38,925 bases of DNA, from contig JAKALN010000004.1 of assembly GCA_021824155.1 (NCBI GenBank), positions 1 to 38,925 of the forward strand, written 5' to 3'. The notes under the pieces are model-generated. The model was given only the letters and a program-made list of their open reading frames with translations, ran no database searches and was not told the origin of the DNA. This document shows, piece after piece, positions 1,803 through 38,792 of the stretch (position 1 is the stretch's first letter; every line of letters starts with the position of its first letter). Source of the DNA: a bacterium. Its GTDB lineage: Bacteria > Patescibacteriota > Microgenomatia > Levybacterales > UBA12049. Position numbers and translations under genes: made by a program.

Positions 1803-1884
1803 CGAAATCCTAAGCACTAAACTCTAAATCCTAGAATATTTAGAAATTAGTATTTTAAATTTAGGATTTGCGACTAAAAGGAGA
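1803..1884. repeat. 7-nt-periodic imperfect inverted-repeat element ending in an SD-bearing tail
   Basis: Left arm aaatcct aagcact aaactct aaatcct; right arm ttagaaa ttagtat tttaaat ttaggat; tail ttaggatttgcgactaaaaggaga matches 28071-28094 at 23/24. Confidence 0.85.
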
Positions 1885-1887
1885 ATT

Positions 1888-2232
1888 ATGGCAAGAGTTA
1901 AACGAGGAGTAATATCCAAAAGCAAACATAAAAAACTTTTATCCCGAACAAAAGGGTTTAGGGGTACAAAATCAAAACTGATAAAAGTAGCAAAAGAAGC
2001 AGCGCTGCATGCCGATGCTTACTCTTTTCATGGAAGAAAACTAAGAAAAAGGGACATCAGGGGACTATGGATAATTAGGATTGGCGAGGCGTCAAAAAAA
2101 GAAGGCGTCTCTTACAGCAGGTTTATGAGCGGACTGAAAAAATCCAAAATAGAATTAGACAGAAAAATACTCGCAGATTTAGTAGTTAACGACCCTCAAA
2201 CCTTTCAGAAAATCGTAAAGACCGCAAAATAA
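1888..2232 (+). CDS. rplT: 50S ribosomal protein L20
   Basis: MARVKRG, KGFRG, RK.RKRD.R.LWI.RI, IELDRKILADL; SD AAGGAG upstream. Confidence 0.98.
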   Translation: MARVKRGVISKSKHKKLLSRTKGFRGTKSKLIKVAKEAALHADAYSFHGRKLRKRDIRGLWIIRIGEASKKEGVSYSRFMSGLKKSKIELDRKILADLVVNDPQTFQKIVKTAK

Positions 2233-2295
2233 CAATCCTCTTTTTATATTCATTGAATAGTGAAAAAAGCCTCGGGTTATGGTATTCTAAGACAT

Positions 2296-3354
2296 ATGGA
2301 AGAAGAACTAATAAGTATTAAAAATGCCGCTCTTTCTTTTATTTTAGAAGCCGAAGATTTAAAGTCACTGGAAGAAACCAAACTCCAATTCTTGGGTAAA
2401 AGCGGAAAATTAACTCAAACAATAAAAGATATAACAAAAATTCCTCCCGAAAAAAGAAAAGAATTCGGAATGCTGGCAAACGAAGTAAAACAGACTATAG
2501 AAGACGCAATTGCACAAAGACAGGAAAACTTAAAACAGAAATCTGAAAAAATCCTAAGACAAAAAATAGATGTTACAAACCCGGGAATTAAACCGCCCCT
2601 GGGCCACGAACATCTGGTAACGCAGGCTATTGAAGAAATCAGCGGTATTTTTGAAAAAATAGGTTTTACCAGGTTAAGGTACCCGGAAGTTGAATGGGAC
2701 TGGTATGCTTTTGAAGCCTTAAACTTTCCCCAAAACCATCCGGCAAGAGACGACTGGGAAACTTTTTTTATAAAAGCCGAAAAAGATGCAAAAAAAGGCC
2801 CAATGGTTTTAACCCCCCATACATCGTCGGGGCAGATAAGGGAAATTGAAAAGAATCTTGCAAAGGAAAATAAAGATAAAAACTTATCTATTAGAATGCT
2901 TAATGTTGCCAAATGCTACAGGAGACAATCCGACGTTTCCCATACCCCAATGTTTCATCAGTTTGAGACACTGGTAATCGATAAAGATATTTCAATTTCG
3001 CATTTAAAAGGGGTTTTGGATTACTTTGCAAAATCATATTTCGGTAAAAACAGAAAAACAAGGATAAGGCCTTACCATTTCCAGTTTACCGAACCGTCTT
3101 TTGAAGTTGACGTTACATGCGGAGTGTGCTTAGGCCGCGGCTGCAGACTCTGTAAGGAAGGATGGCTTGAAATGGGAGGAGCGGGAATGGTCCATCCTAA
3201 TGTTTTAAGAACGGGCGGGATAGACCCGGAAAAATATACCGGCTTTGCTTCCGGTTGGGGAGTGGAAAGAGTCCTTATGATGAGGGAAGGATTGGAGATA
3301 GACGACTTAAGGCTTTTGTATTCCAATAACCTTGATTTTTTAGAACAGTTCTGA
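2296..3354 (+). CDS. pheS: Phenylalanyl-tRNA synthetase alpha subunit (start moved to ATG 2296)
   Basis: FEALNFP..HPARD, HTSSGQIR, HTPMFHQFE, FQFTEPSFEVD, GC..CK..GWLE.GGAGMVHPNVL; extended -10 TGgTATTCT lies 7 nt before ATG 2296. Confidence 0.98.
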   Translation: MEEELISIKNAALSFILEAEDLKSLEETKLQFLGKSGKLTQTIKDITKIPPEKRKEFGMLANEVKQTIEDAIAQRQENLKQKSEKILRQKIDVTNPGIKPPLGHEHLVTQAIEEISGIFEKIGFTRLRYPEVEWDWYAFEALNFPQNHPARDDWETFFIKAEKDAKKGPMVLTPHTSSGQIREIEKNLAKENKDKNLSIRMLNVAKCYRRQSDVSHTPMFHQFETLVIDKDISISHLKGVLDYFAKSYFGKNRKTRIRPYHFQFTEPSFEVDVTCGVCLGRGCRLCKEGWLEMGGAGMVHPNVLRTGGIDPEKYTGFASGWGVERVLMMREGLEIDDLRLLYSNNLDFLEQF

Positions 3355-3360
3355 ACGGAT

Positions 3361-3395
3361 GACTTATGATTTACGATATAAGATTTATGAATAAC
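3361..3395. repeat. Degenerate heptamer tandem array (GATTTAT-type)
   Basis: gacttat gatttac gatataa gatttat gaataac. Confidence 0.75.
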
Positions 3396-3405
3396 GTTCT
3401 TTATC

Positions 3406-3489
3406 AAAATTCGAAGAATTTTGAAGAGGAGAAGCCGGCAAAAAGCCAAACTCCGAACGAAGAGAGGAGGAAGGCGCGAAGCCGAGCTT
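3406..3489. repeat. Cluster of cGAAg mini-hairpins (REP-like palindromic insert) between pheS and pheT
   Basis: aaaattc-GAA-gaatttt (3406-3422), ctcc-ga-ac-GAA-ga-ga-ggag (3451-3469), gc-GAA-gc (3476-3482); outer stem aagccggc/gccgagctt. Confidence 0.65.
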
Positions 3490-3495
3490 AGACGA

Positions 3496-5445
3496 ATGAA
3501 TATAAAAATAATTGACAGCTGGCTAAGAGATTATCTTAAAACAAATGCAACCGTGCAGAAGATAGAGCAAATTCTGTCCGAGACTAGCGTCTCGGTGGAA
3601 AGACTGGAAAAAATTAAAGACGATTATATATATGACATAGAAGTAACTACCAACAGGCCTGATTTGATGTCTGTAATAGGAATTGCAAGGGAAGCATCTA
3701 CCGTTTTAAAACATAATGGAATAGACGCAGAATTTATACCTTTAAAATTACAGGAACCGCAAGTCCCGAAAACAAACCTGATAGAAATACACAATGACCC
3801 AAAACTTGTCAACAGAATTTGTGCGGTTGTAATGGAAGTCAAAGCAAAAAACTCCCCGGAATATCTTAAAACACGTTTGGAAAATTCGGATATAAGAAGC
3901 CTTAATAATTTAATCGATATAACAAATTACGTAATGCGCACAACCGGGCACCCTGCCCATGTTTTTGATTTTGACAGGCTTAATACGAAAAGTCTGACAA
4001 TAAGAGAAGGGAAAGCAGGAGAAAAAATAAAAACGCTGGATAATAAAGAACATACCCTTTTAGGGGGAGAAATAGTCGCAGTAAACGATAAAAACAATAT
4101 CGTTGACCTTTTGGGAATAATGGGACTGGAAAACAGTGTCGTAACCGAAAACACCAAACGCATTCTTTTTTTCATAGACAACAACGAAAAAACACACATA
4201 AGAAAGGCTTCTATGTCCTTAGGCATAAGAACGGAAGCGGCTGTGTTAAACGAAAAAGGGCCCGACAGCGAACTGGCATATAAAGCGCTCTTATACGGAA
4301 TAAAATTGTACGGACAATTAGCCGAAGGGAAAATATTGTCCGGTATTATTGACATATATCCCAATAAACCAAGCGAAAAAACAATTACGGTACTGCAAAA
4401 TAAAATAAACAAAATAATAGGCGTGGAAATTCCGATAAAGACATCTTCGGATATACTTAAAGGCTTAGGTTTTGAAAATACAATAGACGGCAATTACCTT
4501 AAAATAAAAATACCTTCGTTTAGAAGAGAAGATGTTGAAATAGGGGAAGATATAGTAGAAGAAATCGCAAGAATTTACGGTTATGGAAACATTCCAAGCT
4601 TAATACCTCCTCTTTCTTCAAACCAAACGACCCAACCTTTTATAAATGAATTTTACTGGGAAAAACGGACGAAGGATGCCTTAAAGTACTGGGGGTTTAC
4701 AGAAATGTATACATACTCCATGGTGTCGGAAGACCTGCTTGAAGGCCCGGAAAACGAGTCGGTCGAAATCCAAAATCCGCTTTCCGAAGAATTTGTATAT
4801 ATGAGACTAACTCTTGTACCTAGTCTTCTAAAAGTGGTGTCCGAAAATAAAAAAAGGCAGGAAATAAAAATTTTCGAGCTGTCAAAAGTGTATTTTAAAA
4901 AAGAAAATGACCTGCCAAAAGAAAATTTAATGCTTGCGGGAATAATAAAAAAGCCCAATGCGTCTTTTTATGAAGCAAAGGGAATCATAGAACAATTATT
5001 AGCGGACTTAGGCATAAAAGACTTACACTTTAAGGAATCCCAAAAAGGGGGGTTGGGTGCATCCATATACCTGGATAAAGAATATCTTGGCGAGATAGAG
5101 GTATTAAATACAGACCTGGTTGATTTTGAAATAAGCTTTGAAACAATACTAAAACATGCAAGCCTAAAAAAAGAATATAAGAAATTAACTAAATATCCTC
5201 CTGTTATCGAAGATATATCTGTCATAACAGAAGAAGGAATTAAAACCGAAGACATAATCCGGGACATAAAAAACCAAAGCCCGCTTATTACCGATGTTTT
5301 TCTATTTGACAGATTCCAGAATTCAAGGTCTTTCCGCATTACATACCAAGACCCGGAAAAAAATCTAACAACGGAAGAAATCTCGTCGGTAAGGAAAAAA
5401 ATAATTTCCTCGTTGGAAAATAAATTCAAAGCCACAATAAAATAA
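3496..5445 (+). CDS. pheT: Phenylalanyl-tRNA synthetase beta subunit, lacking the B2 OB-fold insertion (start moved to ATG 3496)
   Basis: MNIKI..SWLRDY N-terminus, DIEVTTNRPDLMSVIGIARE, NNLIDITNYVM..G.P.H.FD, R.DV..EDIVEEIARIYGY, C-terminal FDX-ACB domain. Confidence 0.96.
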   Translation: MNIKIIDSWLRDYLKTNATVQKIEQILSETSVSVERLEKIKDDYIYDIEVTTNRPDLMSVIGIAREASTVLKHNGIDAEFIPLKLQEPQVPKTNLIEIHNDPKLVNRICAVVMEVKAKNSPEYLKTRLENSDIRSLNNLIDITNYVMRTTGHPAHVFDFDRLNTKSLTIREGKAGEKIKTLDNKEHTLLGGEIVAVNDKNNIVDLLGIMGLENSVVTENTKRILFFIDNNEKTHIRKASMSLGIRTEAAVLNEKGPDSELAYKALLYGIKLYGQLAEGKILSGIIDIYPNKPSEKTITVLQNKINKIIGVEIPIKTSSDILKGLGFENTIDGNYLKIKIPSFRREDVEIGEDIVEEIARIYGYGNIPSLIPPLSSNQTTQPFINEFYWEKRTKDALKYWGFTEMYTYSMVSEDLLEGPENESVEIQNPLSEEFVYMRLTLVPSLLKVVSENKKRQEIKIFELSKVYFKKENDLPKENLMLAGIIKKPNASFYEAKGIIEQLLADLGIKDLHFKESQKGGLGASIYLDKEYLGEIEVLNTDLVDFEISFETILKHASLKKEYKKLTKYPPVIEDISVITEEGIKTEDIIRDIKNQSPLITDVFLFDRFQNSRSFRITYQDPEKNLTTEEISSVRKKIISSLENKFKATIK

Positions 5446-5447
5446 CC

Positions 5448-7817
5448 CTACGGAGTAGGAATAACAGAAGGAAGAGGACTTAAGGTCGCGCTTGGTGTTT
5501 GCGTAGGCGCCGGAGTTGGCGTTGGGTTATTGTTTGAACCGCCGGAATACTGGTAATCGGAAGTATCTGTTGGCGGATAATATTCGGGATGGTCCGCCGC
5601 ATAAGTTTGTTTTATCCATGCATTTATACCGTCCTGCCACCTATTTTTGCCGTCTGTTGAAATAGGGTCGTTCATTTTAAATACAATGAAATCCTTAGTA
5701 TCATAATCTCCCGCATTTATTTCTGCCTGATTTGCAAGTTTTCCGCCCTGATGTTTGGATATCTTAAGTTTTTGGTAAATTGCCGAAGGTCCCGTAGGCT
5801 GAGTGCCCTGTATAAAATACTCACTTCTGGTAGGCTGTCCGGGTACCGGAAGACCTCCTCCAAATGCGTCTATCTGCATTGCCAAGACATCGTCCGGTTT
5901 TTGCGGCGGCTCGTCCGGTTTTCCCTTTAAAACCGAACTCATTATTTTATTCCATATAGGAGCGGCACCGGTTATACCGGATGAAACTTTGCTCATAGGA
6001 GAATTGTCGTTATTTCCAACCCATACGCCTACTACATACGAAGGAGTGTAACCCATTGTCCAGTTATCCCTTATATCATTTGTTGTTCCGGTTTTTACGG
6101 AAACACTGGGGTGCCCGGCAACAACAAGCTGTGAATAAGGCCCGAATTCCATTGTCCTTGCGTTGTTATCCAAAAGGATATGGGAAATTATAAAAGATAT
6201 TTCCTGGGACAATTCCCTCTGGGGCGAAGGGGGATTATATTTATACAAAACTTTCCCATGGGAATCGTCAACTTCGGAAATTGAATACAAAGGCTGTTTA
6301 AGCCCTCCATTTGCAAAAACGCTGTATGCCTGCATTTCGTCTATAAGCCTTACGTCCCTTCCTCCCAAAACAAGAGAGTATCCGACGTCATTCATATTTG
6401 CGTCGGTCGGCTGCCAATTTGAAATCCCCATGTCATATGCTTTTTGCATTACGTTTTTTATTCCTACCATAGCCAGCATTTCAACTGCCGGTACATTTAT
6501 TGAATTTGCCAAAGCAAACCTAACTTGTATTGGCCCCCTGTATTTTCCGTCATAGTTAACCGGTATATAATCTTTTTCGCTGTCTGTTGCTTTAAAATTT
6601 ATGGGCACATCCATTAACAAAGTCGAGGCAGTATATCCTCTTGAAAGCCCGACCGCGTATGTAATCGGCTTTAGGGAAGAACCGGGCTGCCTGGACGCTA
6701 AGGCAGCATTAAAATTACCGTCGTTTTTTGTGTCAAAATAGTCTTTGCTTCCGACCATTGCCAAAATTTCTCCTGTTTTAGGATTAGATACCATAGCAGC
6801 TCCATTTCCCACCTTCAGGGTCTTATCTTTATCTATCTCTGTTTTTACAATATCCTCGGCATTTTTTTCGATGTTGTAATCAAGAGTTGTTTTAACCTGA
6901 AGGCCCCCTCTTTCAACCATCTGTTCTCCAAATTGGTCAACAAGCTGCTGTTTAATATAAAAGACAAAATGGGGTGCCTTTATCCCTGCCGTATTTTGTG
7001 TAAACTGCATAAATTTAATTTCTTTAATAGCCGCGTCCGCCTGGGCCTGGGTTATATGATTGTCCCTGACCATAGCATCCAAAACTTCCTGTGAGCGCTC
7101 TATATAATATTTGTTGCCGCTAAAAGGCGAGTAGGCAGTAGGGCTTTGAGGCAATCCGGCGAGTAAAGCACTCTGGGCCAGATCCAAATCCTTAACATTT
7201 TTATTAAAAAAGGTTTCCGAAGCCGCTTCTACCCCGACGGCAGAACCCCCATAAGGCACGTCGTTTAGGTACATTTCCAGTATCTGGTCTTTTGAGTATT
7301 TTTTATCTACCTGTATTGAAAGCATCAATTCCTTTATTTTTCTGGGTATCGTCTGCTGGGAAGTCAAAAGAACATTTTTTACAAGCTGCTGGGTAAGAGT
7401 AGAACCCCCTGAGAGCTGGCGGTATAAAATTAGGTTTCTGACTGCCCTTAAATACCCTGTTATGGAAAAACCCTGGTTATTGTAAAAATTCCTATCCTCT
7501 ATAGATACTGTTGCCTGCTGCAGGTATTTGGGGATATTATTCAGGTTTTCGTAGATTCTATTCTGGTCCTGATAAACAGAGTAAAGTAAAACCCCGTTTC
7601 TGTCATAAATTCTTGTTGAATCCGACTGCTGAGCCTCTACAAGTTTTCCCGGAGCGGGTAAATCCCTGCCGTACCATATAAACAAAACAGTCATCAGGAT
7701 TATAAGACCAATCAGTCCGAAAAACCCGTATTTGGTAATTTTACTTATAAGAACCATCCTGGAGGCATTTAAGGAGTATCTTTGACGTCTGCTTCTTCTG
7801 TGTCCGTAATCCAGCAT
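5448..7817 (-). CDS. Class A bifunctional penicillin-binding protein (PBP1A family), Pro/Thr-rich tail (start probably ATG 7817)
   Basis: N-terminal TM; transglycosylase EDRNF, GGSTLTQQLVKN, RKIKE; transpeptidase SSLK, SIN, KTGT; TGaTATACT lies 7 nt before ATG 7817. Confidence 0.95.
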   Translation of the reverse strand: MLDYGHRRSRRQRYSLNASRMVLISKITKYGFFGLIGLIILMTVLFIWYGRDLPAPGKLVEAQQSDSTRIYDRNGVLLYSVYQDQNRIYENLNNIPKYLQQATVSIEDRNFYNNQGFSITGYLRAVRNLILYRQLSGGSTLTQQLVKNVLLTSQQTIPRKIKELMLSIQVDKKYSKDQILEMYLNDVPYGGSAVGVEAASETFFNKNVKDLDLAQSALLAGLPQSPTAYSPFSGNKYYIERSQEVLDAMVRDNHITQAQADAAIKEIKFMQFTQNTAGIKAPHFVFYIKQQLVDQFGEQMVERGGLQVKTTLDYNIEKNAEDIVKTEIDKDKTLKVGNGAAMVSNPKTGEILAMVGSKDYFDTKNDGNFNAALASRQPGSSLKPITYAVGLSRGYTASTLLMDVPINFKATDSEKDYIPVNYDGKYRGPIQVRFALANSINVPAVEMLAMVGIKNVMQKAYDMGISNWQPTDANMNDVGYSLVLGGRDVRLIDEMQAYSVFANGGLKQPLYSISEVDDSHGKVLYKYNPPSPQRELSQEISFIISHILLDNNARTMEFGPYSQLVVAGHPSVSVKTGTTNDIRDNWTMGYTPSYVVGVWVGNNDNSPMSKVSSGITGAAPIWNKIMSSVLKGKPDEPPQKPDDVLAMQIDAFGGGLPVPGQPTRSEYFIQGTQPTGPSAIYQKLKISKHQGGKLANQAEINAGDYDTKDFIVFKMNDPISTDGKNRWQDGINAWIKQTYAADHPEYYPPTDTSDYQYSGGSNNNPTPTPAPTQTPSATLSPLPSVIPTP

Positions 7818-11474: not shown

Positions 11475-11830
11475 AAAACCCTCTCGACCCGCGACATAAA
11501 AGGAGACAAAAATTAGTTGAGGACCTTTTTAAATTAGAGTTCCACAGGCAGAGAGTGTTGCCGGAAACCAAATTAATTATTTCGAATAAGGAATTAATAG
11601 ATAAAAATATTGAAAAATCTGCTCCCGAATTTCCTATAGACAAAATTAACAGAGTTGATCTTGCAATATTAAGACTGGCGGTATATGAGCTTTTAATAGA
11701 AAAAAAACAGCCGCCGAAAGTAATAGTTGACGAAGCGGTCGAACTGGCAAAAGAATATGGAGGGGATACAAGCCCCTCTTTTATAAATGGTGTTCTGGGT
11801 AACATTATTGTATATGATAAATCTTCCTAA
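11471..11830 (+). CDS. nusB: Transcription antitermination factor NusB (short form)
   Basis: IDK.I...[41 protein letters not shown]....FINGVLG. Confidence 0.94.
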
Positions 11831-12500
11831 ATTTAAAAATAAAGAGCTTTTTGAACAATCTTTTATACATAGGTCTTACTTAAACGAGACCAAAAAGAAA
11901 ATTTCATCCAATGAAAGGCTGGAATTCTTGGGAGACAGCGTTATTTCTTTTGTTGTATCCCAATATCTATATTCAAAATACCCTAATTTCAATGAAGGAA
12001 TACTGACTAACCTTAGATCCTTACTGGTAAATACCAAAAGCCTTGCCCAGGCAGCCAAAGATTTGGAGTTTGGAAACTTTCTTAAACTGTCCAAAGGCGA
12101 AGAAGAATCAAGGGGAAGACAAAATCAAAGCCTTTTGGCAGACAGTTTTGAAGCATTTGTCGGTGCTTTGTTTTTAGACAGCGGCATAGATGTAGTTAAG
12201 AAATTTCTCTCCGATGTTCTTCTGCCTAAGGCGGAACTCTACGTTAAAAACAAAACTTTTAAAGACCCTAAAAGTTTACTCCAGGAAAAAATCCAATCCC
12301 AGAAGCAAACTTCACCCGTTTATAAGGTAATAGGCGAACAGGGCCCCGCGCATGCAAAAGTCTTTACGGTAGGAGCTTATGTTAATAATGTTTTAATGGG
12401 GCAGGGAAACGGGAAGTCAAAACAGGAGGCGGAAGAAAGTGCCGCAAAAGAAGCACTAAACAACATTAAAGCAAAAACTCTTGAGAAGCAAACCAAATAA
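11814..12500 (+). CDS. rnc: Ribonuclease III (start probably ATG 11814)
   Basis: [32 protein letters not shown], ds[11 protein letters not shown]...GPAHAK.F...G.GKSKQEAE. Confidence 0.97.
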
Positions 12501-12572
12501 TGGTAGAATAGTAGGATAGTAAATCGTTCATAGTTATTTACCATGAACTCTGAACAAATAATAAACTAAATA
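12501..12572 (+). promoter_or_regulatory. rpsP promoter followed by a heptamer-periodic hairpin (GTTCAT/ATGAAC-type)
   Basis: TGgTAGAAT at 12501-12509; gtaaatc gttcata gttattt | accatga actctga acaaata ataaact. Confidence 0.55.
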
Positions 12573-16973: not shown

Positions 16974-17606
16974 TTAGAATCCGTTGTTTCTTATTGTAAC
17001 CGACGTTGAAAAAGGTATAGTCGCATTTTTTTCGCTGATAAAAGTGCTTGACGAGGATGAAATTTGGGATAAGGTAAAGTTTATGCCTATTGTAGGCGGT
17101 TCGGTAAGGGTGTGACCAGTACAGGTAAAATAACATTTTGTAGGATCAACGGAAACCGTTGAAGTGTCTATCAGGGAAGAAGAATTTGAAGCAATTGTGT
17201 ACGGGTTTCCCGAACATGAAAACACAGTTTGCCCTCCGTCAAATGAAGTTATTTTAACGTAATAAAACTGTTGCGGGGTAGGGGTAGGTAAGGGGGAAGG
17301 AGAACCCGATGGCAGGGGAGTAGGAGCAGGAACACAGACAGTGGTATAAGTAACACCGTCCGTACTTACACCGTTAAAAGCTTGGGCAAAGGTTAACATT
17401 TTTGAAATTTGGATAATCGCGTAGTTTCCATTTTCCCTTACGTTATTCAAAACAGTTGACTTATTCGAACCCCTTAACGAGGACACGATAATCCCCGTAA
17501 CGATCATGCCTACGACGACCATAATAACTATAACCGTTAAAAGCTCTACTAACGTATAGCCTTTTTGCGGATTCTTAATCCTTAATCCTAAATTCTTAAT
17601 TTTCAT
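16974..17606 (-). CDS. Minor prepilin (PilW/GspJ-like)
   Basis: KG|YTLVELLTVIVIM class III signal; VRENGNYA; PTP-rich loop. Confidence 0.87.
   Translation of the reverse strand: MKIKNLGLRIKNPQKGYTLVELLTVIVIMVVVGMIVTGIIVSSLRGSNKSTVLNNVRENGNYAIIQISKMLTFAQAFNGVSTDGVTYTTVCVPAPTPLPSGSPSPLPTPTPQQFYYVKITSFDGGQTVFSCSGNPYTIASNSSSLIDTSTVSVDPTKCYFTCTGHTLTEPPTIGINFTLSQISSSSSTFISEKNATIPFSTSVTIRNNGF
17573..17600 (-). repeat. Heptamer array in a pilin leader peptide
   Basis: Sense strand attaaga atttagg attaagg attaaga, encoding IKNLGLRIK. Confidence 0.8.
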
Positions 17607-18103
17607 TATGGTGTATTAAAAATAGTACCGTTAAGATTTGCAAAACAGGATTTTAAGCCGACATTATGGCAAAATTGGTTATTTTTATCCGTACATTTGC
17701 TGTCCGACCAGGAGACAGTTACGACCGTTAAAGCGCTTCCGCTGCAGGAAGGGGAATTCTGTGTTATATCTACTTCTCTTACAAATATCCCGTAATTTTG
17801 GCCGCAGGAATTAGAAACAGGGTCAACGGTTCTTAAAAGAGTCGTGCCCCCGTCCATACAATACCGCCCTGCAGTATAGGAGGAAAATAAATTCCAGTTG
17901 GATAAACTGGTCTGGCGCATTACCTCCATTGCTTCCTGGGCATACTGGCTGGCAATGTTTTGGTTTTTGGTGTATTGGACGTTGTTTAAGGCGGAAATAA
18001 CAGTTATCGTTATTGCAGATACGACCAAAACGGCCGCACCCAAGGCAACAAGTGCTTCAAGTAAACTTTGTCCCTTTTCTTTATTTTTATCTAATATTTC
18101 CAT
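17606..18103 (-). CDS. Minor prepilin (PilV/GspI-like)
   Basis: KG|QSLLEALVALG; A.QYAQEAME.MR; FVREVDI, VTVSW. Confidence 0.85.
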   Translation of the reverse strand: MEILDKNKEKGQSLLEALVALGAAVLVVSAITITVISALNNVQYTKNQNIASQYAQEAMEVMRQTSLSNWNLFSSYTAGRYCMDGGTTLLRTVDPVSNSCGQNYGIFVREVDITQNSPSCSGSALTVVTVSWSDSKCTDKNNQFCHNVGLKSCFANLNGTIFNTP

Positions 18104-18596
18104 TATTATCTATTGTTATTGTAAGTGTTTTACTATAGCCGGTAAGCACAATTTTTGTGTTTCCGCCCGTAGCTCCGCTTGAGATTACAGGGTAGAAAAT
18201 ACTGCTTGCTGTGGTCTGTGAACTGAAAGTAATATTAGCCGGCAGCGTTGTTGTCTGGATACTGTGGGTGCCAAGACAGATAACGCTTAGAGTATAGGAA
18301 TTATTAAGGGTATTTATATCTACCTGATAGCCGTTTAGCACCTGTCCCGAGCACACGGCAGGCACAACCTGCGAAAGAGCGCGTGACCTTGCCAGCGTTA
18401 TTGTATTTTCCAGATCAGACCCTGCCTGCACCAAAGTTTGATTCCTGCTGTAGCTAACAAACGATGCTATCCCCATTGTCGAAAGGATGGCGATAACCGT
18501 AAAAACTACAATTAATTCCAAAAGAGTGAAGCCATCGGAAGATTTACGTTTTATGATTGATAATTCATGAATTTTATTATGTAGGCAGTCAACCAT
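18087..18596 (-). CDS. Minor prepilin (FimT/GspH-like)
   Basis: G|FTLLELIVV; L...ITLARSRALS; C-terminal TITIDNNGNI. Confidence 0.85.
   Translation of the reverse strand: MVDCLHNKIHELSIIKRKSSDGFTLLELIVVFTVIAILSTMGIASFVSYSRNQTLVQAGSDLENTITLARSRALSQVVPAVCSGQVLNGYQVDINTLNNSYTLSVICLGTHSIQTTTLPANITFSSQTTASSIFYPVISSGATGGNTKIVLTGYSKTLTITIDNNGNIR
18541..18575 (-). repeat. Degenerate heptamer array in a pilin leader peptide
   Basis: Plus strand gatttac gttttat gattgat aattcat gaatttt, same flavour as 3361-3395. Confidence 0.6.
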
Positions 18597-18609
18597 AAAT
18601 ATTATTTTA

Positions 18610-19062
18610 TTAAGGGTTTTTTACCGTGTAAGACCAGTTTGTGGTTCCGGTGCATGGGGCTATGTTTGAAGTATCTTTTTGGTTATCGTTAAGGTTTTCA
18701 AGACAGGCTATTATTGAATAGGTTGTGCCGTCCGAAGAAAATGTGTAACTTCCGCCCAAGGGGTCGCACGGGATTGTCTGCATATACGTTGTGCCGTTTA
18801 AGGCCAAGGATGTCGTATTGCAAGCGGGAAGGGAAGTAGGATAACTTCCCTGGTCGGACCTGTAAAGCTCCATTGCCGACTGAATCTGGCGTAAATCCGA
18901 TTTTCTCTGTGCGTCCCTTGCCCTTTGCCTTACGCCTACAAAATTGACCATAAGAAGCGTAGCCAAAACACCTATAATCGCAATTACAATTAAAAGTTCT
19001 ATTAAAGTAAAACCCTTACCCGAATTTTTAACTTTAAATTTTAAATTTTTAATTTGCTTCAT
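18610..19062 (-). CDS. Prepilin, GspG-like
   Basis: KG|FTLIELLIVIAIIGVLA; RARDAQRKSDLRQIQSAMELY..D.G.YP; IPCDP. Confidence 0.92.
   Translation of the reverse strand: MKQIKNLKFKVKNSGKGFTLIELLIVIAIIGVLATLLMVNFVGVRQRARDAQRKSDLRQIQSAMELYRSDQGSYPTSLPACNTTSLALNGTTYMQTIPCDPLGGSYTFSSDGTTYSIIACLENLNDNQKDTSNIAPCTGTTNWSYTVKNP
19023..19055 (-). repeat. Heptamer array in a pilin leader peptide
   Basis: Sense strand aattaaa aatttaa aatttaa agttaaa aatt, encoding IKNLKFKVKN. Confidence 0.7.
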
Positions 19063-19604
19063 GGTGTCACATTAGGACTTGTTACTGCAAAATTGCAGGG
19101 CCCGCCGCAGGAATTTGCAGTTATCCCGTTTGCTGCGATGCTCGGACACTCGTTGTTAACCAGATTCTTACAAATCTGCGGGTCGGACGTACCTCTATCA
19201 AGCGTAGCATAAAGATAATAAGATTGTCCAGTTGAATAGTAAACATAATTGTCGGAAGAAACAGGGTCTTTAGGAAGTAAATTCATATATGGCTGCCATT
19301 GGGTTCCCCAATCCGCAGTTGTCAAATCAAGCCTTACAATTCTGTAAAGAGGGGGGGTAACCGCAGAGTAAGACGGATATTTTCCGTTGTCCTGATAATA
19401 GGTTTCAAGGGCCCTTTGGATTTGGGCCAAATCCGATTTTCTTCTTGAATCGTTTGCTTTTTGAAACTGGGCAAAGGGATTAAGCGCAACTATAGATCCT
19501 ACAGCAAGAACAGAAAGAATCCCTATAACAACAATAAGCTCCACAAGCGTAAAACCTTTTTCTTTATTTGAAATTTGAAATTTGAAATTTGAAATTTTAT
19601 TCAT
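19059..19604 (-). CDS. Prepilin, GspG-like (start moved to ATG 19604, TAATG overlap with upstream stop)
   Basis: [17 protein letters not shown]|FTLVELIVVIGIL; KANDSRRKSDLAQIQRALETYYQDNGKYP; LPKDP. Confidence 0.9.
   Translation of the reverse strand: MNKISNFKFQISNKEKGFTLVELIVVIGILSVLAVGSIVALNPFAQFQKANDSRRKSDLAQIQRALETYYQDNGKYPSYSAVTPPLYRIVRLDLTTADWGTQWQPYMNLLPKDPVSSDNYVYYSTGQSYYLYATLDRGTSDPQICKNLVNNECPSIAANGITANSCGGPCNFAVTSPNVTP
19566..19593 (-). repeat. Perfect (ATTTGAA)x4 tandem repeat inside a pilin leader
   Basis: Four exact 7-nt units at 19566-19593. Confidence 0.92.
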
Positions 19605-20512
19605 TATTGTGTACATAAACTGCCGCTGCAGGTTGTTGTTCCGGGCCCAGAGTAACAAGTTAAAGTACCGCCATATATCGTACACTGGCTTTGAACTACA
19701 CTGTTACAGTGCCCGCTTGATACTGCATAATAATTAGGATTGCAGTTAAAAGGCGCAGGTGTGGGCGTAGGGGTAGGAGTCGGAGTCGGAACGGGCGTAG
19801 GAGTAGGGCTTGACGTAGGCGAGGGCGTAGGAGTAGGGCTTGACGTAGGCGAAGATGACGGAGTAGAAGAACCGGTAGGCAAAGGAGTAGAAGAACCGAT
19901 AACGGGGTTTGGTAGAGGATTTGCAGCTATATAAGAACAATTTACGTTTCCCGATACAACGCAATAGTTGTAGCCCAAAGCCTGGTAATTTGTAGGTAAG
20001 CAATTTGAAAGCTGGGACAAAGCGCAGGAAGTCTGGAGGCTTGCGGTAGAGGACATTTTTGCAAAAAGGACGTTCCACTGCGGACAGCTGCTGCCGTCTG
20101 TTTCATATAAATAAGAAACCGCCCCCGAAGCAGGGTAATCCGGGTCCTGCGGAACCGTCTGGAGATAAACAGAAGAACCTTTGGTAAACGAACCTCCCAT
20201 GGAAACAGAAGCCGGATAGCAGTTTACGTCGGAGAGGTAAGAATCCAAAGCACTTCTTATCTGCGTTAAATCATGCTGTCTTCTTGCGTCTTTTGCCTTA
20301 TCGAGCTGTTTTATGGGGTTTAAAGTGACTATAGCCATGGTAATAAGGGTAGAAAGAATTACTACAACCACAAGAAGTTCTACTAGAGTAAACCCAAAAA
20401 TACCATTATGCGGGTAACTATTAAATCCCCTAAAAAAAGGCTTATAATGCTTCCTGTTACTAAAAAGGGTCCAAAAGGAATTGTATCTTTTATGGATGCC
20501 TTTTTTCTCCAT
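19604..20512 (-). CDS. Prepilin with Ser/Thr/Pro linker and C-terminal 6-Cys domain; start uncertain
   Basis: G|[13 protein letters not shown]; [21 protein letters not shown]; [10 protein letters not shown] linker; only in-frame ATG lies 130 nt inside pilD. Confidence 0.85.
19793..19852. repeat. 30-bp exact tandem duplication in the Pro/Thr/Ser linker
   Basis: gggcgtaggagtagggcttgacgtaggcga x2. Confidence 0.9.
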
Positions 20513-26111: not shown

Positions 26112-26210
26112 ATCCAAAAAATTTCTAATTTCTAATTTCTAATTTCTAATTTTATTTTAATACCTATATCCATATTAGAACATTAGTGCAATTAGAGCAA
26201 TTAGATTAAT
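26103..26210. repeat. (TTTCTAA)x4 array between 11-bp direct repeats, with an opposing ATTAG 8-9-mer arm
   Basis: tatatccatat at 26103-26113 and 26165-26175; tttctaa x4 at 26122-26149; attagaac attagtgca attagagca attagatta from 26174. Confidence 0.88.
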
Positions 26211-27983: not shown

Positions 27984-28094
27984 AAAACTAAATTCTAAAT
28001 ACTAATATCTAAATCCTAAATAATGTTCAAAATTAAAAATTCAAAACGTTTAGGGTTTAGAATTTAAAAATTAGGATTTGCGACTGAAAGGAGA
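27984..28094. repeat. 7-nt-periodic inverted-repeat element with SD-bearing tail (homologue of 1803-1884)
   Basis: aaattct aaatact aatatct aaatcct ... tttaggg tttagaa tttaaaa attagga tttgcgactgaaaggaga. Confidence 0.87.
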
Positions 28095-33058: not shown

Positions 33059-33096
33059 AAAATTTGGGTTTTGGAGACCGGTTTGTGTGCTACAAT
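33059..33096 (+). repeat. Junction/promoter repeat, copy 2
   Basis: AAAATTTGGGTTTTGGAGACC followed by TGcTACAAT. Confidence 0.8.
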
Positions 33097-33103
33097 TGCT
33101 TAA

Positions 33104-33349
33104 ATGGCCGAAAGACTAAATCCGGGACCCGAACATTTAGGACTCGATCAATTACCGACTGACATACAAAACGCAAGTTGGGGAATTGTAAGATTTGCAT
33201 CCAGGATTCTTCCCGCACAAGGACAAACTCCGGAAGATACCAGAGAAGAACGTATGGCATTATTGGTTTCTCATTACACCGGAGAATTAGGAAAGCTTAT
33301 CCAAAGACTTGGAACCCCCGAAGAAATTACCGCGCTGTCTAAAATTTAA
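33104..33349 (+). CDS. Small hypothetical protein, leaderless
   Basis: 81 aa MAERL...; TGcTACAAT 7 nt before the ATG. Confidence 0.7.
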   Translation: MAERLNPGPEHLGLDQLPTDIQNASWGIVRFASRILPAQGQTPEDTREERMALLVSHYTGELGKLIQRLGTPEEITALSKI

Positions 33350-33352
33350 CAG

Positions 33353-33367
33353 AAAATTTGGATTTGA
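33353..33367 (+). repeat. Junction repeat, degenerate copy 3
   Basis: AAAATTTGGATTTGA, 3 nt after the stop codon. Confidence 0.6.
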
Positions 33368-33370
33368 AAA

Positions 33371-33580
33371 ACTTTTCTTCTCTTGTGCCGACAAGAAGAA
33401 GCAGAAACTCTCGTCTAGCCTTGTCTCCAGCTTTCAAGCTTTCGCTCGTTTATCGGGTGATTTCACCCCCTCCTCAACAAGTTTGTGAGGAATCCCCCTG
33501 ATGCACTCTCTCAAGCTTTCATGCAGTTGACAGCGGACAGACGAACAAACCGAAGAAACAGGAAAACAAATTTGGAAGGG
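33371..33580. other. Candidate structured non-coding element (ncRNA or folded ssDNA)
   Basis: Several hairpins (tcttgt/acaaga, gggtga/tcaccc, tcctca/tgagga, outer tcgtct/agacga); TCAAGCTTTC occurs twice; no convincing ORF. Confidence 0.45.
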
Positions 33581-33616
33581 AAAATTTGGTTTTGGAGCCG
33601 CACAGTAGTATAATCC
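33581..33616 (+). repeat. Junction/promoter repeat, copy 4
   Basis: AAAATTTGGTTTTGGAGCCGCACAGTAGTATAATCC. Confidence 0.9.
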
Positions 33617-33620
33617 GGCC

Positions 33621-33869
33621 ATGAGCAGAGAAGTTGATTCATCTAAGTGCACCGCAATTATGGAAGTAGGTCCAAGAGATAAGAGCGGACCCTATATCGG
33701 AATTTGTAAATATTTTGGCACAGGACATTGCTTGATGGACGAATATAAAGAAGGCCCACTTCCGCAAGACGCCAGGATAATCAGGGGCGAATGCAGAGCA
33801 GACTGGGAAGCGTTGAGTAAATTGGGAAAAATTCGCAAAGCCCTTTCAGATTTGGCAAAAAAGGGGTAA
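33621..33869 (+). CDS. Small 4-Cys hypothetical protein, leaderless
   Basis: 82 aa with C..C..HC..C, possible Zn-binding; TATAAT 6 nt before the ATG. Confidence 0.7.
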   Translation: MSREVDSSKCTAIMEVGPRDKSGPYIGICKYFGTGHCLMDEYKEGPLPQDARIIRGECRADWEALSKLGKIRKALSDLAKKG

Positions 33870-33925
33870 GATTGTCTCCTCCCAGAATTTAAAAAGCCGA
33901 TAGTGATATAATAAAAGCAATATTT

Positions 33926-34894
33926 GTGACTAATAACATAAGCGATCAGACCGAAGAATTTGTAAAAAACTTTAGAAACTTAGATGAGGAAATCATACCC
34001 TGGATCGATGATGACGCTGTAGGATTAAGCATAATCAAAAATTATCCTGAAAACTCTTTATTCGTTCCTGCAAGAAATCTCAACGGAGAACCAGATTCTG
34101 TAGCACTTATAAAAATTGGTTATACTAATAGTAAAAATATAGAAAAAGAAGAAAATAATGTAAATTTATTTATTTCTATTAGTAAAGTTAGCCGATATTT
34201 ACTTAACAATCACTGGAATTACGATTTCAAAGATCCTAAATCCCCAACAGAAGAATCTCTTAAAAAAAGTAAAGAATCAAAACAACCAATTGATTTAGAA
34301 GATGCCCAGTACCAATATAACTTACCCACAAAAAGATTTTATAACTCTGAAAAGAAAAAATACGTTGAAGCAGGAGAAATTGTTGAGGAGATATATAAAT
34401 TACATTTAAAAACACTTAGGGCTGTTGGTTTTAGGGCTAAAATTAAACTACAAAAACAAATAATCGAATATTCCTATCCAATTAATAAATTATTAATAAG
34501 GACTAATTTCATTTTATTTGGAAGAAAAATTAAAGAATCAAAAAACTTTTCAACAGGAATATTTGAAACATATTCCCACAATGACCTTATCGATTTAACA
34601 ACAGAAAAAACAAAAATTTTAGGTTCAGATTTTCCAATAACAAATCAAACGGCTAGGACGTTTGTAGCTTTTATTACAGTTTTATTTTTATTTAAAATTT
34701 ATAGTGGACGAGATATATTAGGTATTATGTATTTAGTTCAAAAAAGTAGTGAGAATAATCTATTATTGGCCTCTTTTACGGCCACTTTATTATTTATATT
34801 TGACAGAGTCATTCCTCATTTAATACTTTTATTAGTAAATGTACTTATTAGATTGAGACTCTGGTTTATGTTTTGGAAAATAAAATTATCCTAA
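33926..34894 (+). CDS. Low-GC hypothetical protein with C-terminal TM helices
   Basis: 322-aa ORF; TGaTATAAT upstream; hydrophobic segments FVAFITVLFLF and LLLASFTATLLFIF..VIPHLILLLV. Confidence 0.85.
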   Translation: MTNNISDQTEEFVKNFRNLDEEIIPWIDDDAVGLSIIKNYPENSLFVPARNLNGEPDSVALIKIGYTNSKNIEKEENNVNLFISISKVSRYLLNNHWNYDFKDPKSPTEESLKKSKESKQPIDLEDAQYQYNLPTKRFYNSEKKKYVEAGEIVEEIYKLHLKTLRAVGFRAKIKLQKQIIEYSYPINKLLIRTNFILFGRKIKESKNFSTGIFETYSHNDLIDLTTEKTKILGSDFPITNQTARTFVAFITVLFLFKIYSGRDILGIMYLVQKSSENNLLLASFTATLLFIFDRVIPHLILLLVNVLIRLRLWFMFWKIKLS

Positions 34895-34904
34895 AATATA
34901 ATTT

Positions 34905-35372
34905 ATGACTACAAAAAAAATCATTATCGATTCTACGGAAATGTCCAATACGCTTTCTTCATACGCAAAAAAACTAAAGGAATCTGGAGTATTAAGAGAA
35001 CAATTAGCATCAGCGTTAATCTATGCTGGATTAGCAGAATATTTTTGCGATGAATTTATTAAGGCTTTAATTGATCAATTAAATTTAAAAAACCAAAAAG
35101 GCTCTGTTAATCTAAAATCAAAAATAGTTTATAAAAACGAAAACACCAATTTAGAATATGCTTTAATCAAACTAAAATATATAGAGTATCCTGATAAAAA
35201 CGAAATAGAAGAAATAATAAAGATTATTAAAGATGCACGAAATAATTTATTTCATAATCTTATAAGGGCTGGAGAGAAAAAAATAAACTTAAGTATAGAA
35301 ATAATAAAAATTCAAGATTATACTCCACTTCTAAGAGATAGATTAGCTCAATCTCTCATAAAAACACTTTAA
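34905..35372 (+). CDS. Low-GC helical protein with HEPN-like RxxxxH motif
   Basis: ARNNLFHN near the C-terminus; N-terminal helix ALIYAGLAEY. Confidence 0.65.
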   Translation: MTTKKIIIDSTEMSNTLSSYAKKLKESGVLREQLASALIYAGLAEYFCDEFIKALIDQLNLKNQKGSVNLKSKIVYKNENTNLEYALIKLKYIEYPDKNEIEEIIKIIKDARNNLFHNLIRAGEKKINLSIEIIKIQDYTPLLRDRLAQSLIKTL

Positions 35373-35417
35373 AGGCACTAGAATTACTTCATTTTTTCTG
35401 CTAAAATGGTTATATAA

Positions 35418-37373
<1,956 letters not shown>

Positions 37374-37383
37374 CTTTTGATTC

Positions 37384-37496
37384 TAGACAATAGATGCTGG
37401 ATGCTGGATTTTGAAGTTAGAAGATAGATGTTAGATATCCATCCTCTATTATCTAACCTCAAATTCTAATTTCCAGTTTCCACTGTCCATCCTCAA
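37384..37496. repeat. 7-nt-periodic inverted-repeat element (TAGATGT/CTAACTT-type), copy upstream of alkA
   Basis: tagacaa tagatgc tggatgc tggattt .. tagaaga tagatgt tagatat | ccatcct ctattat ctaacct .. ctaattt ccagttt ccactgt ccatcct. Confidence 0.88.
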
Positions 37497-37523
37497 CTTT
37501 CTATATGGTAAAATTTATGAACG

Positions 37524-38111
37524 ATGAGCAAGATAACTTTTACCGACGGGAAACTTAATGAGCTTGTAAAAAGGTACGGGCCGCCCACTTTTTTGGATAG
37601 AGAAGAACCACTTTTTGAAGGACTTATCGGTTCCATTATTTCCCAGCAGCTTTCTACAAAAGCAGCGGATACTATATATAAGAGGTTTTTGGCATTATTC
37701 AACAACAGATTTCCCACTCCAAAACAGATAATAAAAATAGACAAAGAAAAAGTTAGAGGAGCGGGAATTTCTTATATGAAGATTTCCTACATGAAAGACA
37801 TAGCAAAAGCCTTTGACGAAAAATTAATAGATGAAGAAAAAATAAAAAAAATGGATGACGAAGAAGTAATGGTGGAATTAATAAAATTAAGGGGGGTAGG
37901 GAAGTGGACCGCGGAAATGATTTTAATCTTTAATTTAAAAAGGCCCGATATTTTTTCTTTGGGGGATTTCGGACTAAGGCGGGCAATAAGAATTTTATAC
38001 GGGATAACCGATGAAAAAGAAATTCTTAAACTTTCCGAAAACTGGAAACCAAACAGAAGCATTGCGTGCTGGTACCTGTGGCAGTCTTTGGACAACAGTC
38101 CAAAGATTTGA
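37524..38111 (+). CDS. alkA: DNA-3-methyladenine glycosylase, AlkA / HhH-GPD family
   Basis: L..SIISQQLS.KAA..I..R, HhH LRGVGKWTAEM.LIF.L.RPD.F...D.GLR, W.P.RS.A.WYLW. Confidence 0.9.
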   Translation: MSKITFTDGKLNELVKRYGPPTFLDREEPLFEGLIGSIISQQLSTKAADTIYKRFLALFNNRFPTPKQIIKIDKEKVRGAGISYMKISYMKDIAKAFDEKLIDEEKIKKMDDEEVMVELIKLRGVGKWTAEMILIFNLKRPDIFSLGDFGLRRAIRILYGITDEKEILKLSENWKPNRSIACWYLWQSLDNSPKI

Positions 38112-38114
38112 TGA

Positions 38115-38266
38115 TAGACGATAGACGCTTGAAGCTGCCCGCCTGCAACGCTTAATGAGTAGCATCTGCGGGCAGGGATCTTGATACTAGAAGATAGAGG
38201 TTAGATTTCTAACTTCCAGCTTCCAACTTCAATTTCTAATTTCCAGCCTCCACTGTCTATTCTCAA
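38115..38266. repeat. Second copy of the heptamer hairpin element, with a GC-rich palindrome inserted
   Basis: 38188-38266 aligns ungapped to 37418-37496 (63/79 by hand count); ctgcccgc...gcgggcag stem at 38135-38175. Confidence 0.88.
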
Positions 38267-38293
38267 ATGGTTTTGTGTTATACTCTCCACCTA

Positions 38294-38734
38294 ATGGAAA
38301 ACGAACCCCGACAAAGGATGCTTACCGAACGGGAATACACATTATATCTGGCCGCAAAAGATGCAAAAAGGGACAAAATTTTTAAAACTATGTCTATGGT
38401 AAGCAAAACTCTGACCCAAGAGGGAATAACAGCGGGAGCGGAAGTTTTCCCCGGATGGAAAGATGTTAATTGTTATTTTCCATACCACACAAATCCCGGC
38501 AATACGGTTTTGCATGTCCGGTTAAGTCCGGTAGAAGATGACAAGAGAAAACTAACCGTAACAATGAGGGAATTAAACAGCGAAATAATGCTTGACGAAA
38601 GAAAAAGGGTTTCCATTGGAGCCGAAACCCAGTCACAGGTAAGAATAGTTTTAGAACCAACGTTAATCCCCAACAGGTCTTCCTCTTTAATTAAATTATT
38701 AAAAAAAGAGCTTTCAAAGCCTAAGCATTCATGA
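38294..38734 (+). CDS. Hypothetical protein (start moved to ATG 38294)
   Basis: MENEPRQR...; TGtTATACT 9 nt before the ATG. Confidence 0.75.
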   Translation: MENEPRQRMLTEREYTLYLAAKDAKRDKIFKTMSMVSKTLTQEGITAGAEVFPGWKDVNCYFPYHTNPGNTVLHVRLSPVEDDKRKLTVTMRELNSEIMLDERKRVSIGAETQSQVRIVLEPTLIPNRSSSLIKLLKKELSKPKHS

Positions 38735-38762
38735 TTAAGAATTTATGAAAACGAAACATTTA

Positions 38763-38792
38763 TTGAAAATTGAAAACTAAAAATTTAAAATT
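38763..38792. repeat. Heptamer array (TTGAAAA-type) before the HAD gene
   Basis: ttgaaaa ttgaaaa ctaaaaa tttaaaa. Confidence 0.65.

Follow-up and report, generated by a model that had tools for sequence, protein, structure and literature searches.

Heptamer-repeat arrays in a Levybacteria genome and their association with 23S rRNA intervening sequence protein genes

RESULTS

Heptamer arrays in the window

The stretch of DNA analyzed here (contig JAKALN010000004.1 of assembly GCA_021824155.1, positions 1 to 38,925; the whole 38,925 nt is called the window below) is contig C3 of genome G000, a metagenome-assembled Levybacteria genome of the candidate phyla radiation (CPR) comprising 814 kb in 32 contigs, with a G+C content of 37.9% and a rated completeness of 99.5%. 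The window carries infC-rpmI-rplT-pheS-pheT, an RNase III gene (positions 11787 to 12500, plus strand; PF14622 match at C3:11838-12227, E value of 7.3e-36), a type IV pilus operon (pilB, pilT, pilC, a prepilin peptidase gene, and six pilin-like genes), holB, and gyrB. No tRNA genes were found in the window, and Rfam gave no match there at the gathering score, rRNA included, and none in positions 3340 to 3520 at an E value of ≤1. The stretch was found in four DNA sequencing runs of one study, with no RNA run listed. Gene calls are crude (longest open reading frames [ORFs], chosen greedily), and the relatives used for comparison, gathered through GyrB, are Candidatus Levybacteria/Levyibacteriota, Microgenomates, or Patescibacteria. 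Our subject is a set of arrays of degenerate 7-nt units dispersed between and within these genes and the relation of such arrays to genes of the family 23S_rRNA_IVP (PF05635), here called IVP genes.

An initial annotation of the window, made from the sequence alone, listed twelve arrays of this kind and placed each just before or just inside a gene start. Nine of the twelve (at 3361, 17573, 19023, 19566, 26122, 27984, 37384, 38115, and 38763) were recovered by Tandem Repeats Finder (TRF) or by an autocorrelation scan, while 1803 to 1884 is periodic by eye only, 18541 to 18575 is weakly so and also by eye only, and 12519 to 12572 is unsupported. The TRF period-7 rows in the window are at 17571, 19023, 19566, 26120, 27988, 37393, 37413, 38113, 38207, and 38762. 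Within the window, the placement at gene starts stood with one exception, the array at 3361 to 3395, and eight of the twelve sites have between 1 and 15 homologous loci elsewhere in the genome.

Two complementary arms, which the annotation had described for many of the intergenic arrays, were seen at 1803, 26122, 27984, 37384, and 38115, with RNA fold z scores of -1.7, -2.2, -3.1, -4.4, and -3.1, respectively. In the rpmI-rplT spacer (1803 to 1884, plus strand), a two-arm hairpin of subfamily B (CTAAnnn arm, TTTAGnn arm; fold of -15.9 kcal/mol, z of -1.66) is followed by the tail TTTGCGACTAAAAGGAGA and then by the rplT ATG at 1888; it was missed by TRF and the scan, 11 other loci in the genome match it at an E value of ≤0.01, and its tail recurs before ssb, rpsR, rplA, and holB. 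A second two-arm subfamily B hairpin, with the tail TTTGCGACTGAAAGGAGA, lies before holB (27984 to 28094, plus strand; TRF, 27988 to 28021; z of -3.14) in a spacer shared with the divergently transcribed pilB, and of its 14 other matching loci, 2 are beside IVP genes, the best of these being 94% identical over 34 nt and beside the IVP gene on contig C8. Between the pilB stop and the pilT start (26115 to 26210, minus strand; found by TRF; z of -2.23), one arm is a perfect AATTTCT array of 4.7 copies and the other, at 26174 to 26205, has a period of 9, not 7; the arm segment 26192 to 26210 is identical to 19 nt located 28 nt from the IVP pseudogene on contig C28. Subfamily A is represented by a hairpin after the gyrB stop (37384 to 37496, plus strand; T[AG]GAnnn arms with the conserved end TCCACTGTCCATCCTCAA; scan hits at 37391 to 37438 and 37461 to 37489; -35.1 kcal/mol, z of -4.39; 15 other matching loci) and by one at 38108 to 38266 (plus strand; found by the scan; z of -3.07; six other matching loci), which contains a nested G+C-rich hairpin at 38135 to 38180 and runs up to the start codon (ATG, 38267) of the gene that follows.

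Single arms are found after the pheS stop (3359 to 3395, plus strand; TTATGAn-like units; scan hit at 3359 to 3387) and before the last gene of the window (38761 to 38793, plus strand; ATTGAAA-like units; TRF, 38762 to 38792, 4.4 copies; also found by the scan). The former lies about 100 nt 5' of the likely pheT start at 3497, forms no hairpin (z of -0.60), and has no other matching locus in the genome. The claimed array before rpsP (12519 to 12572, plus strand) gave no TRF period-7 row, no scan hit, a fold z of +0.58, and no homologous locus in the genome. Positions 3396 to 3496, between the first single arm and pheT, hold a leader-like element made up of the hairpin AAAATTCGAAGAATTTT, then GAAGAGGAG and GCCGGCAAAAAGCC, and ending in GACGA before the ATG at 3497; the longest-ORF start of pheT at 3421 is probably wrong. 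Leaders resembling this one precede gyrA in relatives L003, L006, and L015 and holB in L023 and L030.

Four of the six pilin-like genes, all on the minus strand, have prepilin leaders encoded by arrays. These are at 17569 to 17605 (leader MKIKNLGLRIKNPQKG, followed by YTLVELL; TRF, 17571 to 17601, 4.4 copies; N_methyl motif at residues 12 to 36), at 18541 to 18575 (the weakly periodic case, negative by TRF and the scan; leader ending in HELSIIKRKSSDG, followed by FTLLELIV; N_methyl motif), at 19021 to 19058 (leader MKQIKNLKFKVKNSGKG, followed by FTLIELL; TRF, 19023 to 19055, 4.7 copies; Pfam N_methyl and T2SSG), and at 19557 to 19608 (a perfect ATTTGAA array of 4.6 copies; TRF, 19566 to 19597, 100% matches), the last with identical 25- to 28-nt copies at C9:91352 and C10:2732. 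Among relatives, 7 of 73 pilin N termini carry period-7 leader arrays, with none for periods 6, 8, and 9. All six pilin-like N termini of the genome lie in one operon (window positions 16974 to 20512), where the leaders are unusually long (16 to 22 residues where the start is clear), and a 302-amino-acid pilin-like ORF there (19604 to 20512) contains a 30-nt tandem repeat of 2.0 to 2.3 copies, up to 100% identical, at 19793 to 19866.

Excess of period 7, array units, and hairpin anatomy

Genomewide, TRF at ≥4 copies found 79 arrays with period 7, compared to 10, 6, and 3 with periods 6, 8, and 9. The autocorrelation scan, which required ≥16 of 21 self-matches, found 108 arrays at lag 7 (10 of these segments fall inside the window) against 26, 17, and 38 at lags 6, 8, and 9, and three local shuffles gave 6, 5, and 1 period-7 arrays. 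The periodicity is far above chance, as the initial annotation supposed. The surroundings of gyrB in 72 Patescibacteria-type loci of relatives held 118 period-7 arrays, spread over 37 loci, versus 19, 14, and 28 for periods 6, 8, and 9 (totals summed by hand); eight outgroup gyrB loci held one period-7 array.

The drift of the unit between arrays was likewise confirmed, the 108 arrays having some 60 distinct consensus units. Units share only a loose T3-purine4 profile (consensus TTTAGAA), not the one or few exact genomewide units that characterize STRR1 to STRR3 (short tandemly repeated repetitive sequences), TAACTGA, and GGGNATC, and neighboring units within an array differ by 1 to 2 nt. Arrays of 4 to 5 units are the commonest length class, making up 57 of the 174 merged TRF arrays, and numbers drop sharply beyond 5. 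The idea that units are built on palindromes of 6 bp was considered and rejected, since it fits 21 of our 108 arrays versus 16.6 expected (46 of 500 shuffles reach 21) and 17 of 118 arrays of relatives versus 20.5 expected.

The arrays group into dispersed subfamilies with conserved ends. Subfamily A has the ends TTGAGGATAGACAGTGGA and TCCACTGTCTATCCTCAA and at least seven copies (37384 and 38108 in the window and at least five other loci); subfamily B reads AATCCTAAGCAC to TTAGGATTTGCGACTGAAAGGAGA and then ATG and precedes rplT, holB, ssb, rpsR, and rplA; further subfamilies are based on GAATTCA or CTTAAAA units. On contig C15, near-identical 60-nt subfamily B hairpins lie 600 nt apart before ssb and rpsR of one operon (17663 to 17743 and 18260 to 18343). 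The nested G+C-rich hairpin, of a CTGCCCGCC to GGCGGGCAG type, occurs inside heptamer-arm elements not only at 38135 to 38180 of the window; it is also found at C5:25127, C5:25226, C23:13097, and C24:44410 of the same genome and in relatives L008, L079, and L088. Perhaps it represents another small element, one that uses the heptamer element as an insertion site.

A long hairpin (≥19 pairs) was found in 18 of the 43 array-bearing spacers that were folded. The interior loops of these hairpins are nearly all symmetric (45 of 1 by 1, 10 of 2 by 2, and 10 of 3 by 3), and the commonest spacing between loops is 7 nt. When arms were swapped between solo hairpins, the cognate arm was the best partner in only 5 of 18 cases because members of a subfamily are interchangeable.

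Position of the arrays relative to genes

Codirectional spacers have an array density of 1.38/kb, compared to 0.67/kb for convergent and 0.53/kb for divergent spacers. The enrichment at gene starts that the annotation expected from the window did not hold for the genome, where starts are not singled out: arrays mark tolerated sequence, not gene starts. Within 30 nt upstream of starts, the arrays with a clear orientation are 17 sense and 2 antisense; farther upstream, they are 5 sense and 10 antisense, a reversed lean consistent with these being the distal arms of hairpins. The idea that arrays replace Shine-Dalgarno sites was rejected, with 79% of 34 array-proximal genes lacking such a site compared to 67% of 852 others, and the use of Shine-Dalgarno sites is rare genomewide.

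Arrays also lie inside genes, 44 within crude ORFs and 37 of the genome's arrays more than 60 nt inside them. All 10 of the array-bearing ORFs tested are ordinary enzymes (TrpRS, Fmt, RecJ, AlaRS, a GT4 glycosyltransferase, RsmH, a ComF-like protein, NAD(P)HX dehydratase, a pseudouridine synthase, and FolD). Coding arrays are read in all three frames and give peptides with a 7-residue period, such as FRIQNSE. The array in TrpRS is a net 18-nt insertion relative to 9 of 9 close orthologs and to a solved structure. The family has two types of TrpRS itself (C4:3630-4625 of genome G000): orthologs 56 to 75% identical to ours are found in nine genomes, and most others have proteins about 31 to 44% identical (33% in the sole genome of the same genus), a distribution that suggests gene replacement.

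Association with PF05635 genes

The initial annotation mentioned that similar arrays flank genes of the four-helix-bundle (23S rRNA intervening sequence) family and saw none in the window. Both parts were borne out: a PF05635 search gave no match in the window and six genes elsewhere in the genome, on contigs C5, C9, C19, C8, and C28, the C28 copy being a pseudogene. By eye, all six are flanked on both sides by inverted heptamer arms, the C9 copy lying within subfamily A arms and the C8 copy within subfamily B arms. We extended this to 35 IVP loci of 30 genera (our 6 and 29 from other genera), with 230 nt examined on each side. A lag-7 array was found upstream in 17, downstream in 22, on either side in 26, and on both sides in 13 of the 35, compared to 13 of 192 control windows located 600 to 1,300 nt away (7%); at lags 5, 6, 8, and 9, the counts for either side were 0, 0, 3, and 2 of 35. 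Cognate IVP flanks pair with each other at -53.9 kcal/mol compared to -38.9 kcal/mol (standard deviation, 9.6) for noncognate flanks, the cognate flank being the best of 33 partners in 10 cases and among the top 3 in 21, and in both minimum free energy (MFE) and centroid predictions, the two arms pair across the whole IVP ORF. One of our IVP proteins matches the solved S23p-type protein 2GSC (E value of 8e-21); a single-sequence query of viral contigs gave no relative of it.

The co-occurring protein family that the annotation proposed to look for also emerged across genomes. We measured the array load of relatives with a phased motif in which TAG recurs four times at 7-nt intervals; matches ranged from 0 to 222 per genome among 194 genomes of the family, with >50-fold contrasts inside single genera. 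Load followed the number of IVP matches, with a Spearman coefficient of 0.74 for the 194 genomes and 0.76 for the means of 89 genera. Among array-rich genomes (≥15 matches), 109 had IVP and 6 did not, whereas among array-poor genomes (≤4), 11 had IVP and 42 did not, and IVP-positive genomes carried more arrays in 18 of the 18 genera that held both kinds (familywide counts were typed by hand from two tables). In a sample of the phylum, 109 of 221 genomes had at least one phased-motif match, and all 25 with ≥20 matches had IVP; this two-by-two table was counted by hand, and the sample includes one unpublished genome (G342; 0 arrays, 1 IVP match), on which alone no claim rests.

Turnover of arrays between relatives

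From genus to genus, arrays come and go at the same junctions. Between pilB and holB, the spacer measures 134 nt here and 23 nt in the closest relative (L008). At the rpmI-rplT junction, 6 of 30 genera have an array, each with different units, and the sole genome of the same genus has none there; in 8 of the 30 genera (L083, L086, L087, L090, L091, L092, L104, and L110), the spacer holds instead a small conserved ORF of about 45 codons that starts with MKQRNFNFR. Upstream of gyrA, a hairpin was seen by eye in about 15 of 64 loci, and no fewer than four types of unit are represented. L018, L013, and L079 share an identical 45-nt stretch of arm at the hppA-gyrA junction while the loop diverges, and where L018 and L079 have the same GyrA residue, only 49% of the third codon positions agree. 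This arm, of the TAGATACTAGTTA type, belongs to a multicopy family present in 34 of the 194 genomes and 21 of the 89 genera. Since junctions turn over and yet this arm is conserved, copies are replaced in episodes while the sequence of each family is held. In L013, L016, L018, L023, L044, L059, and L062, the gyrB stop is followed by a structured insert of about 80 to 130 nt, at the end of which the final ~14 nt of gyrB, stop codon included, are repeated. This insert, which the window lacks, resembles an insertion that has duplicated its target.

DISCUSSION

The reading of these arrays that we favor, and consider rather likely, is that they are the arms of selfish elements like the intervening sequences (IVS) of rRNA and that those in the window are copies and half-copies without an ORF. 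We read the window arrays in this way because rRNA IVS have the same architecture of complementary borders and, in some of them, an S23p ORF. The family would be widespread in Patescibacteria, and its complete form would consist of a PF05635 four-helix-bundle gene between two inverted arrays of about 4 to 5 degenerate 7-nt units, whose pairing would give the transcript a long imperfect stem. The majority of copies, and every one in the window, would be without the ORF, as two-arm hairpins or single arms. Such elements would settle where extra sequence is tolerated, mainly in transcribed codirectional spacers, and where a spacer is missing, in disposable coding sequence such as cleaved prepilin leaders (which tolerate array inserts because they are removed) and surface loops of enzymes, where only in-frame, stop-free versions would survive. 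By analogy with rRNA IVS, the stems may be substrates of RNase III that cut or insulate neighboring cistrons, and the RNase III encoded in the window may be the processing enzyme (compare Warrier et al. 2016, PMC4990558). We infer further that arrays grow by 7-nt slippage, that the IVP protein acts on the arms, and that the elements are mobile. Of the roles that the initial annotation offered, recombination or insertion sites came close to this in that selfish insertion elements and their ORF-less remnants are what we propose.

Several observations weigh against the IVS-like reading. No mobilizing enzyme was found: reverse transcriptase (RVT_1), Y1 transposase/RAYT (PF01797), and TnpB (PF07282) gave no match in the 99.5%-complete genome, and its one tyrosine recombinase is probably Xer. 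By the strict array list, only 2 of our 6 IVP genes have an array within 100 nt, compared to 72 of all 896 genes, and only 3 of the 57 homologous loci of window arrays are within 300 nt of an IVP gene. Among the 1-by-1 mismatches of the long hairpins, 40% are C·A or A·C, the spectrum of decaying repeats and not of maintained stems, and we also list here the strand comparison, which showed no decisive preference, the sense strand folding more stably in 10 of 14 codirectional hairpins (10 versus 4) and G·U pairs numbering 49 versus 31. Across genomes, the exceptions are the six IVP-negative genomes with ≥15 arrays (58 in G015), the eleven IVP-positive genomes with ≤4 arrays, and, in the phylum sample, the IVP matches in about 40 of 112 array-free genomes. 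Genomes that are related do not provide independent data, and arrays and IVP could co-occur because both belong to a common burden of mobile or junk DNA.

A bolder version, which we regard as rather doubtful, is that IVP/S23p is itself the period-reading partner that the initial annotation proposed, each subunit binding one 7-nt unit, and that IVP and its arms form a new autonomous mobile element that needs no transposase, spreads through Patescibacteria as RNA or as a single-strand hairpin, and leaves behind ORF-less hairpins that reshape operon transcripts. Solved members of the IVP family are homopentameric rings of four-helix bundles, and Avd of the diversity-generating retroelements is a homolog of IVP/S23p. 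Binding of one unit per subunit by such a pentamer would explain the peak of array length at 4 to 5 units and the fall above 5. If IVP reads the arrays, the STRR and TAACTGA heptamer families of Cyanobacteria, Bacteroidetes, and Beggiatoaceae might be the same system.

A first alternative, which we judge unlikely, is that these are ordinary long simple-sequence repeats that arise by 7-nt slippage and then decay, with the link to IVP being an indirect one through lax purging. Heptanucleotides are the commonest class of long simple-sequence repeats in many prokaryotes, for which slippage has been proposed (Mrazek 2007, as summarized in PMC4679880), and the small differences between neighboring units, the predominance of C·A and A·C mismatches, and an array in TrpRS that fits a local duplication of 21 nt (three units; net 18 nt) are all as slippage would have it. 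MutS (PF00488) was not found in our genome, which is also in its favor. Against it stand the convergence of units on a small number of dispersed subfamilies whose ends are conserved and which, like the TAGATACTAGTTA type, are common to several genera, the position of arrays right next to IVP at 26 of 35 loci, and the conservation of a 45-nt arm segment in the face of saturated synonymous sites. The >50-fold differences in load within a genus follow IVP, not MutS. Loss of mismatch repair as the cause was rejected, with MutS not following array load in 39 rich or poor genomes: it is missing in 14 of 14 genomes of genus g60, rich and poor, and of the genomes searched in genus g25, 3 of the 4 rich and 5 of the 6 poor ones have it. 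MutS is found in most genomes of g25, g52, and g15.

Quite unlikely in our view is that the arrays are cis-regulatory sites for a periodic RNA- or DNA-binding factor unrelated to IVP that tunes the initiation of translation downstream, which was the leading proposal of the initial annotation; a translation-related role in cis has also been proposed for the TAACTGA repeats of Beggiatoaceae (PMC4679880). In keeping with such sites, the start-proximal arrays are strongly biased to the sense orientation and taken alone are nearly unstructured (mean MFE of about -2.8 kcal/mol), array length is sharply limited, and arrays precede highly expressed genes (those for L1, L20, L27, S18, SSB, DnaK, GrpE, and GyrA), with the conserved subfamily B tail GCGACUGAAAGGAG found before rplT in another genus as well. 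What counts against regulation is that convergent spacers are no poorer in arrays than divergent ones, that arrays sit in loops of TrpRS, Fmt, RecJ, AlaRS, and other enzymes, that the closest relatives have no arrays at the same junctions, and that Shine-Dalgarno use is alike in array-bearing genes and the rest. A search of the 99.5%-complete genome for known periodic RNA readers, namely, HutP (a reader of UAG-N4 repeats), CsrA, cold-shock domain, Hfq, and LSm, gave none.

It is very unlikely, if compatible with IVS-like elements as an added use of some arrays, that the arrays in pilin leaders are contingency loci in which the gain or loss of one 7-nt unit shifts the frame and turns single pilins on or off. 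In favor of this, phase variation usually acts on surface structures, a unit of seven is not divisible by three, the repeat at 19566 to 19597 is perfect and in the 5' coding end, and period-7 arrays are found in four of the six pilin-like genes here and in 7 of 73 pilin N termini of relatives. Against it, three of the four arrays in pilin leaders are imperfect, which makes them poor substrates for slippage, like arrays occur in housekeeping enzymes, and all frames are open.

If the IVS-like reading is right, many CPR operons are interrupted by selfish hairpins, which affects gene calling (starts, leader peptides, and in-frame insertions) and the inference of operon structure and adds a fast-evolving layer to otherwise minimal genomes. 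PF05635 is a large family for which, to our knowledge, no function has been known since its discovery in rRNA intervening sequences, with Avd of diversity-generating retroelements as the only studied relative, and we know of no protein partner so far for the STRR, TAACTGA, and GGGNATC families. The link between arrays and IVP gives a first handle on both through the questions of whether IVP binds the arrays and whether the arms direct cuts by RNase III.

The closest known system is the rRNA IVS, a parasitic insert with complementary borders and sometimes an S23p ORF that in the cases studied is excised by RNase III (PMC4990558). In CPR bacteria, IVP ORFs have been described within insertions in rRNA (PMC11270868), and such ORFs are also known from cas operons, where they lie between the genes (PMC3936711). 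Like the elements here, the IVS of 23S and 16S rRNA (Leptospira, Coxiella, Brucella, and CPR) include ORF-less versions, are sporadically distributed, and are termed parasitic or selfish. The complementary borders that enclose the insert are also shared, solo window hairpins having z scores of -2.2 to -4.4. A PF05635 ORF lies inside six elements of our genome and in 29 loci of relatives and in none of the window copies. Unlike IVS, the elements here lie between or inside protein-coding genes and not in rRNA helices, their arms are degenerate 7-nt arrays, and they reach dozens to hundreds of mostly ORF-less copies per genome.

Heptamer repeats of other bacteria resemble the arrays in placement. 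The TAACTGA repeats of marine Beggiatoaceae, some Cyanobacteria, and Bacteroidetes are 7-nt tandems that are mostly intergenic and in forward orientation just before starts, precede ribosomal protein genes, occasionally occur in ORFs, and are patchy across related genomes, as here (MacGregor 2015, PMC4679880). They consist of one exact unit in almost only direct repeats (169 direct sets versus one indirect; PMC4679880), in contrast to the many degenerate units, common inverted arms, and linked protein family found here. Like our arrays, STRR of heterocystous cyanobacteria and GGGNATC of Xanthomonas and Nostoc are heptamers that are overrepresented in noncoding DNA, prefer co-oriented spacers and a certain copy number, and are underrepresented in divergent spacers; they are G rich and quadruplex forming with near-identical units (Rehm 2015, PMC4692102). 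The arrays here are instead A+T-rich with a T3-purine4 profile and form hairpins through inverted arms.

A third group of relevance is that of small palindromes dispersed in transcribed spacers, namely, REP/BIME, the Correia/NEMIS MITEs (miniature transposable elements with inverted repeats), and the Rickettsia palindromic elements (RPE); some of these are cut by RNase III (Correia), and some are inserted in frame in protein-coding genes (RPE). The elements here differ from REP/RAYT and the IS200/IS605 MITEs in that no RAYT/Y1 or TnpB match was found in the genome, and from RPE in that coding insertions are short arrays (about 18 to 40 nt) and not whole palindromes, and an internal 7-nt periodicity is not a feature of REP/BIME, Correia/NEMIS, or RPE. 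A literature search, with subscription journals and supplements outside its scope, gave no report joining heptamer repeats with PF05635/IVP and none of heptamer repeats in Patescibacteria, Microgenomates, or Levybacteria. None of the known systems compared here unites arms of degenerate 7-nt units, an ORF for IVP, and a scattering of copies through operons of protein-coding genes.

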